A stretch of 17,995 nt of DNA, from the NCBI RefSeq assembly GCF_003334335.1, contig NZ_QOWQ01000057.1; one strand, given 5' to 3'. Below, in pieces: positions 6,362-6,650 of the stretch. A model generated the notes under the pieces. It had not been told where the DNA came from and ran no database searches. It was given only the letters and a program-made list of their open reading frames with translations. Origin of the DNA: Escherichia coli (GTDB lineage Bacteria; Pseudomonadota; Gammaproteobacteria; Enterobacterales; Enterobacteriaceae). The translations under genes and the position numbers were made by a program. Positions within the stretch are counted from its first letter, which is position 1. The number at the start of each line of letters is the position of its first letter.

Positions 6362-6379
6362 TTTAGCTAATTTAGCTAA
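6362..6379. promoter_or_regulatory. Tandem 9-bp direct repeat TTTAGCTAA x2, each containing the palindrome TTAGCTAA; putative operator overlapping the -35 region of the hsd operon promoter
   Basis: 6362-6370 and 6371-6379 are identical; TTAGCTAA is its own reverse complement. Followed by TATTAT (6386-6391) as a -10 candidate and the ATG at 6405. Confidence 0.4.
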
Positions 6380-6404
6380 CTTATCTATTATACCAGTGGT
6401 TGCC

Positions 6405-6650
6405 ATGAATATGAATGAAGACGAGATTTATCGCCATATCCGGCAGGCACTTTCCAGTGCGCCTCGTAACCAGTACACCGTCGAGCTGCACCTGCAAATG
6501 ATTAAATATGCCGACAAACTGGAACACATTACGGCAAAAGCCTTTTGCGAAGGCACTGGTCTGAACCAGAGCCTCGGTACCGAATTCAGCAAAATGCGTA
6601 ACTTAACCCATCGGTTAAAGGCCGCCGGTCTGAATACCGATCTGCTGTAA
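6405..6650 (+). CDS. Small hypothetical protein (81 aa), possible HTH regulator; first gene of the hsd-darTG operon
   Basis: MNMNEDEIYRHIRQALSS...HITAKAFCEGTGLNQSLGTEFSKMRNLTHRLKAAGLNTDLL. E. coli-like codon usage (CTG, CGC, GGT); the segment ITAKAFCEGTG-LNQS-LGTEFSKMRNL looks helix-turn-helix-like. ATG at 6405 chosen over the TTG at 6345. Ends 39 bp before hsdM. Confidence 0.5.
   Translation: MNMNEDEIYRHIRQALSSAPRNQYTVELHLQMIKYADKLEHITAKAFCEGTGLNQSLGTEFSKMRNLTHRLKAAGLNTDLL

Follow-up and report, generated by a model that had tools for sequence, protein, structure and literature searches.

A seven-gene defence island and its promoter

The window, a 17,995-nucleotide stretch of Escherichia coli DNA, contains a seven-gene defence island on its plus strand. 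Many E. coli chromosomes match the region at 100% identity, and the gene layout used here comes from the RefSeq annotation of one of these. The island opens with rptR (6411-6650), which encodes a 79-aa transcriptional repressor and is the first, co-oriented gene of the defence operon, as it also is at most of the 80 homologous loci considered below. The first defence gene, hsdM (6690-9128, 812 aa), starts 39 nt past rptR and is followed by hsdS (9128-10462), the DarTG2 toxin-antitoxin genes darT-darG (10475-12195; darT 10475-11131, darG 11128-12195), hsdR (12214-15309) and a gene for an M48-family metallopeptidase (15309-16025), the last of the seven. The embedding of darTG between hsdS and hsdR is that of the RRDM island of EPEC E2348/69, in which the same seven genes, rptR-hsdM-hsdS-darT-darG-hsdR-M48, defend against several phages (PMC12255303). 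The M48 (WP_001122107.1) and DarG accessions are identical between the two islands. No terminator-like site was found on the plus strand between 5800 and 7000, the gap between rptR and hsdM included. The island is embedded in a CP4-44-like element. Its upstream flank (161-3082 and 3380-5412, minus strand) has genes for an Ag43/Cah autotransporter and a YeeP-like GTPase besides hypothetical genes, and beyond the M48 gene lie IS600/IS5 remnants and an EspI fragment.

Ahead of rptR, two copies of the 9-bp repeat TTTAGCTAA stand head to tail on the plus strand at 6362-6370 and 6371-6379 (6362-6379 reads TTTAGCTAATTTAGCTAA), with RptR core sites TAGCTA at 6364-6369 and 6373-6378; binding to this repeat sequence has been seen by EMSA for EPEC. 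The tandem palindromic repeats pointed out in an earlier reading of the letters (the sequence-only reading) are real: in the window, where 0.23 copies of the palindrome TTAGCTAA would be expected, there are three, a number reached in 0 of 200 shuffles, and the 18-mer of two perfect repeats is unique. Both perfect copies described there are present, but a third, degenerate unit, CTTATCTAT (6380-6388, plus strand), had been missed. Its core, TATCTA (6382-6387), is one of four core variants expected to allow RptR binding (PMC12255303). The paired pattern TAKMTA-N3-TAKMTA is found in the 18-kb window only at 6364-6378 and 6373-6387 (0.01 expected); these TAKMTA sites, 9 bp apart, belong to the promoter of rptR itself, and their array overlaps its -10 box. 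One copy of TTAGCTAA inside hsdS (9416-9423) is isolated, with no partner at 9-bp spacing, and is taken as a chance occurrence. A literature search with the operator strings turned up no paper.

The -35 hexamer of the promoter is TTGAAC (6345-6350, plus strand), identical in EPEC, where scrambling it lowered GFP reporter output. The -10 box, AGCTAATTT (6365-6373, plus strand; hexamer TAATTT at 6368-6373), aligns to the 5' -10 box of EPEC and sits where repeat 1 meets repeat 2, 14 bp past the -35, with sequence and spacing the same in EPEC. In EPEC, mutagenesis of the -35 and of the 5' -10 identified this box, 14 bp past the -35, as necessary and sufficient, and the 3' box is inactive alone (PMC12255303). 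The repeats had been said to overlap the -35 region; judged by this mutagenesis of a near-identical promoter, they overlap the -10 box at 6365-6373 instead. The promoter implied by the former placement, with a -35 in the repeats and a -10 at TATTAT/TATACC (approximately 6386-6394), was rejected, given that function in EPEC depends on TTGAAC, further upstream, and on the 5' AGCTAATTT box. A sigma-70 consensus scan of the region did not detect the true plus-strand promoter, of which the -10 (TAATTT) went unscored because it is a weak match. The one site that it did report is on the minus strand: a promoter-like site at 6415-6387 (-35 TTCATA at 6415-6410, -10 TATAAT at 6392-6387, 10/12 matches, TG extension) overlaps repeat unit 3 and faces a divergent hypothetical gene (5875-6129); we regard it as unproven because chance would yield approximately 1.5 of its kind in the region.

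The RptR repressor and its alleles

The small open reading frame upstream of hsdM runs for 81 codons from an ATG at 6405 to a stop ending at 6650; translation from another in-frame ATG (6411) would give 79 aa. The 81-aa frame of the sequence-only reading exists and belongs to a conserved gene, but the conserved protein has 79 aa and starts at 6411. PGAP uses this start for WP_001431807.1 ('HTH-like domain-containing protein'), and chain A of the crystal structure 9R2Z also has 79 aa. There are 688 RptR homologues among 5.8 billion proteins, and we take ATG 6411 as the conserved start because most of the 120 listed homologues are 79 aa long. The taxa named among these, at 72-91% identity, are Dickeya, Pantoea, Methylomonas, Nitrosomonas, Vibrio, Aeromonas, Shewanella and Pseudoalteromonas.

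Residues 4-73 match the Pfam family PF24718 (HTH_73, 'HTH-like domain') with E=2.1e-28, the one other listed match at E<=10 being a weak BH3 match. NCBIfam gave no model for RptR, only noise matches (E>0.08), and a full-text literature search for HTH_73/PF24718 gave nothing relevant. A profile search of PDB sequences returned 9R2Z chain A ('Transcription factor') with E=8e-48 and 76 of 79 residues identical; the three differences between window RptR and 9R2Z/EPEC RptR are N2/D, N52/S and H67/R. The AF2 model of the window protein (pLDDT 93.9) has four helices (3-16, 19-32, 42-49 and 53-71), with a long C-terminal alpha-4, and resembles 9R2Z ('RptR transcriptional repressor') in a Foldseek search of the PDB at a TM score of 0.91-0.92 and an rmsd of 1.1-1.4 A. 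Among the listed Foldseek matches, 9R2Z is the only one at E<=0.001 and every other chain has an E value of 1 or worse. With residues counted from the start at 6411, the window protein has the DNA-contact residues T57, E58, S60 and K61 and the dimer residues V24, E25, L65, R68, L69, A72 and L74. In a 24-sequence alignment, 36 of 79 columns are invariant, including E58, S60, K61, E25, L65, L69, A72 and L74, and T57 and R68 are at least 90% conserved. The small ORF and the tandem repeats are the RptR repressor and its operator.

RptR and its operator have been characterised in the RRDM island of EPEC E2348/69 (Zhang et al., Nucleic Acids Res 2025; PMC12255303). RptR forms homodimers, and its crystal structure was solved at 1.3 A (PDB 9R2Z); in EMSA on DR1-3 it binds three 9-bp TTTAGCTAA repeats cooperatively, with a KD of 185 nM and a Hill coefficient of 3.4; two adjacent repeats suffice for binding in vitro and repression in vivo (PMC12255303). 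The minimal site is the palindrome TAGCTA, in which G5/T and C6/A are expected to be tolerated, and in an AlphaFold 3 model of DNA-bound RptR the 6-bp site is read within one major groove (PMC12255303). Supplied in trans, RptR represses the promoter approximately 10-fold in reporters, repression being the only effect observed, and the S60G variant loses both binding and repression (PMC12255303). Induction of RptR abolishes defence and re-sensitises cells to phage Trib, infection by which raises hsdM mRNA >15-fold (PMC12255303). Hence, the earlier suggestion that a small DNA-binding protein encoded ahead of hsdM acts on tandem palindromes is borne out by EMSA, GFP reporters and a 1.3 A structure for the EPEC allele, which is identical at 76 of 79 residues, and control of the operon by the small protein is further supported by the loss of defence upon overexpression of that allele. 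The idea was right but is not new, given that the system was fully described in July 2025; the remark that such an arrangement is not typical of type I systems was a fair one until then. The literature search found no later paper extending RptR.

Window positions 6300-6700 align to EPEC E2348/69 with 98% mean column identity over 410 columns of promoter and rptR. They differ by an indel of one 9-bp repeat unit and by six substitutions, of which four fall in rptR and two in the promoter/leader; the -35, the -10, the TTTAGCTAA repeats and the gene order are the same. The window promoter has two perfect repeats followed by CTTATCTAT (TATCTA), whereas EPEC has three perfect repeats followed by CTTATCCAT (TATCCA). 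The EPEC core TATCCA is outside the four variants expected to be tolerated and the window core TATCTA is among them, so that both alleles carry three predicted sites, EPEC by virtue of its extra perfect repeat. By its sequence, the window locus is the same module as that of EPEC with one perfect repeat fewer, its third unit being a variant expected to bind. A comparison of window positions 6340-6404 with positions 391-464 of locus L082 looks as if an added repeat had made up for a T-to-C change in the final unit, or vice versa. Approximately 249 of 5,426 complete E. coli genomes carry the promoter-rptR module. The 65-bp window promoter is found exactly in 204 of 250 matching E. coli records, and the EPEC form in 4 records only, all of the O127:H6/E2348-69 lineage. 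Strains CFSAN061761 and NCTC86 are examples with the window allele. The experimentally studied three-repeat allele is thus a rare O127:H6 variant, and the published results with two repeats are the relevant ones because the window form is found in approximately 80% of rptR-positive E. coli. RptR of the window allele is predicted to bind its repeats and repress its promoter because it is near identical to the EPEC allele.

The rptR module at other defence loci

A scan with one genome per species gave 80 loci in Gamma- and Alphaproteobacteria, with RptR 63-90% identical. At most of them, a three-unit TTAKMTAA array begins 47-63 nt before the rptR ATG and often forms a perfect 26-bp palindrome (for example, TTAGCTAATTTATATAAATTAGCTAA), and the paired-site pattern is almost confined to the position upstream of rptR in each approximately 12-kb locus. 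A TTGxxx hexamer lies 12 nt (many loci) or 2-3 nt upstream of unit 1; both registers would place a unit junction (TAAWTT) at -10 distance.

The gene directly downstream of rptR is co-oriented and usually 3-150 nt away, and its identity varies. Type I restriction-modification (R-M) systems, both hsdM-first and EcoAI-type hsdR-first, follow at 38 loci. At 16 loci (L010 and 15 others) a TrlF-family (Ppl-like) ATPase follows, usually with a partner of approximately 400 aa, which apparently is the 'AAA-like ATPase + RNA-binding protein' module of the RptR paper. Three loci each have Gabija, with full-length GajA and GajB (E=6e-256 and 4e-288), type III Mod+Res, the HKD-Snf2 candidate system or Hsp70-like modules. 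One has MADS, with MAD2 as the second gene after an unassigned 554-aa ORF, and one has Dam+HerA. Intact operator arrays were seen at the non-type-I loci L030 (6001-10025), L035, L045, L070/L075/L079, L077/L078/L080, L057, L052, L037/L058, and L010 and 15 others; of these, L030 is a Gabija locus and L070 a type III locus. The paper names type I R-M systems besides 'non-RMS modules of unknown function', and gives neither these system identities nor the homology boundaries described below; type III systems are absent from its main text and Gabija appears only in its introduction (PMC12255303).

Loci whose downstream systems differ share DNA similarity only in the stretch from approximately 50 nt before the ATG through the rptR stop codon, and because homology ends at these two points we regard promoter, operator and rptR as a discrete module of approximately 300 bp. 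On balance, we lean towards the view that this block is a portable regulatory head that recombination has placed in front of defence operons of many kinds and that is not specific to type I systems.

An hsdM fragment lies between rptR and the TrlF-type ATPase in Yersinia ruckeri (L042, 4299-4762) and in L007 (3055-3450), and looks like the scar of a type I system replaced by another defence module. Locus L009 has a second, orphan array, TATATAAATTAGCTAAATTATATA (4761-4786), approximately 1.2 kb upstream of rptR and approximately 170 nt before a 315-aa ORF (4958-5905) that appears Abi-like by eye (motif ...RNRIAHFEPVW); this array may be a second promoter regulated in trans. Four Photorhabdus loci (L063, L064, L067 and L071), with RptR 63-67% identical, have a poor array, CTTGCTTTtTTATATCCtTTATATAA (11-12/18 positions), and still head TrlF-type operons; the specificity of these RptR copies may have shifted, or their control may be relaxed. 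In the type I loci L026 (5655-7890) and L032 (10118-12228), hsdS is followed by a TrlF-type ATPase gene where the window has darTG, and the same has been noted for Rheinheimera baltica and Pseudidiomarina aquimaris (PMC12255303). The presence of TrlF or darTG after hsdS therefore points to a hotspot for inserted genes.

Probable autorepression by RptR and the control of defence operons

The explanation that we favour, with a probability of approximately 0.93, is that RptR is an autorepressor that acts on a promoter-overlapping 9-bp array and controls the seven-gene island. The sigma-70 promoter (-35 at 6345-6350, -10 AGCTAATTT at 6365-6373) would drive rptR, and read-through from rptR would reach hsdM-hsdS-darT-darG-hsdR-M48, all seven genes presumably being co-transcribed. 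RptR would act as a 79-aa four-helix homodimer in which two splayed alpha-4 helices read the 6-bp palindrome TAGCTA (TAKMTA being tolerated), and dimers would load cooperatively on the 9-bp-spaced sites 6364-6369, 6373-6378 and probably 6382-6387. With a start site probably near 6380, the array would span both the -10 box and the expected start, and the occupied array would shut the promoter because it covers these two elements. The expected outcome is negative autoregulation with low basal expression of the whole island, and phage infection would relieve the repression. That control matters follows from the failure to clone hsdMSR or darTG2 directly behind an unrepressed promoter (PMC12255303).

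Likening this arrangement to the C proteins of type II systems, as the sequence-only reading did, is reasonable as an analogy, and the RptR authors make the comparison themselves (PMC12255303); it does not extend to family membership, given the fold, the operator type, an action by repression only and the position before M. Type II C proteins (C.AhdI, C.Esp1396I, C.PvuII) are, like RptR, small dimeric autoregulators that head a restriction operon and act on palindromes in their own promoter, and in both cases a toxic enzyme system is kept under transcriptional control. C proteins have an Xre/lambda-cI-type HTH, long operators, both activate and repress, and usually precede R. C-box operators are approximately 35 bp long, with each dimer spanning two major grooves, and have proximal and distal sites giving activation followed by repression. 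A true controller of this type would activate and repress from two operators as a delay switch that times restriction versus methylation on host entry. The small dimer, the palindromes in its own promoter, its place at the head of an R-M operon, the authors' analogy and the failed cloning of hsdMSR and darTG2 all fit such a switch, but the likeness is superficial. The Xre/C-protein similarity that had been suggested as a check did not appear: an Xre/cI-type HTH domain (Pfam HTH_3 and relatives) is absent from the Pfam matches at E<=10, which are HTH_73 and the weak BH3 match only, no C-protein or Xre chain is among the listed Foldseek matches, and the RptR fold is a distinct one for which only 9R2Z was found. 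The operator has no C-box layout and consists of three 9-bp units with 6-bp palindromic cores, and RptR is known only as a repressor, with the EPEC reporters giving repression only. There is no separate control of the endonuclease, given that RptR overexpression abolishes the defence of the whole island, and because rptR precedes hsdM and controls the whole operon, it cannot alone delay R relative to M. The same module also heads non-R-M systems, such as Gabija. We therefore consider a true C-protein-type controller very unlikely here.

The repeats could also be mere duplicated promoter elements, that is, slipped -10 boxes without an operator role beside an unrelated ORF. A -10 box does lie at the repeat junction, and the number of perfect repeats is 2 or 3 across E. 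coli lineages, as expected of slippage-prone tandem repeats, but for the EPEC allele this is refuted by the sequence-specific binding and repression seen in EMSA and reporters. Furthermore, in many genera the three-unit array is conserved together with the protein amid differing flanks and downstream genes, and the units vary only among TAKMTA forms expected to be tolerated, which leaves this the least credible of the readings that we weighed. Somewhat less improbable is that the approximately 300-bp rptR module is kept mainly as a recombination landmark for the swapping of defence genes, with regulation secondary. This would suit both the limits of DNA homology (approximately -50 to the rptR stop) among loci whose downstream genes differ and the hsdM fragments that L042 and L007 keep between rptR and the TrlF-type ATPase. 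However, the conservation is at the protein level (36/79 invariant columns, including DNA-contact and dimer residues), the operator co-varies only within binding-competent forms, and DNA binding and repression have been demonstrated. A role as a landmark would in any case be compatible with autorepression by RptR and not an alternative to it.

Repression encoded at the head of a defence operon or island has counterparts in BrxR/CapW (WYL) and in CapH/CapP of BREX and CBASS, which, like RptR, are repressors heading several kinds of system and are relieved on infection or DNA damage. These have a WYL sensor domain or the partner protease CapP, whereas RptR is a single 79-aa domain without an evident sensor. 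By analogy with CapP/CapH, the M48 metallopeptidase was considered as an obligatory partner of RptR. This is not supported, given that none was detected within approximately 6 kb downstream of any of the 80 homologues, a partial test in that type I operons end beyond this reach, although the shorter non-type-I operons fit within it and lack M48.

Type I R-M systems were long believed to lack transcriptional control, and their regulation was credited to ClpXP-dependent restriction alleviation. RptR has altered this view, and the window is one more instance of it. What remains of interest is the difference between the alleles, the broader set of downstream systems and the relief signal. The other defence systems headed by the same module widen the question of what relieves RptR repression during infection. 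If the module is indeed a portable head, unrelated systems would share one infection-relief input that is independent of the downstream genes, and RptR, with its near-invariant surface outside alpha-4, might be what a phage or host factor targets, or might sense such a factor.
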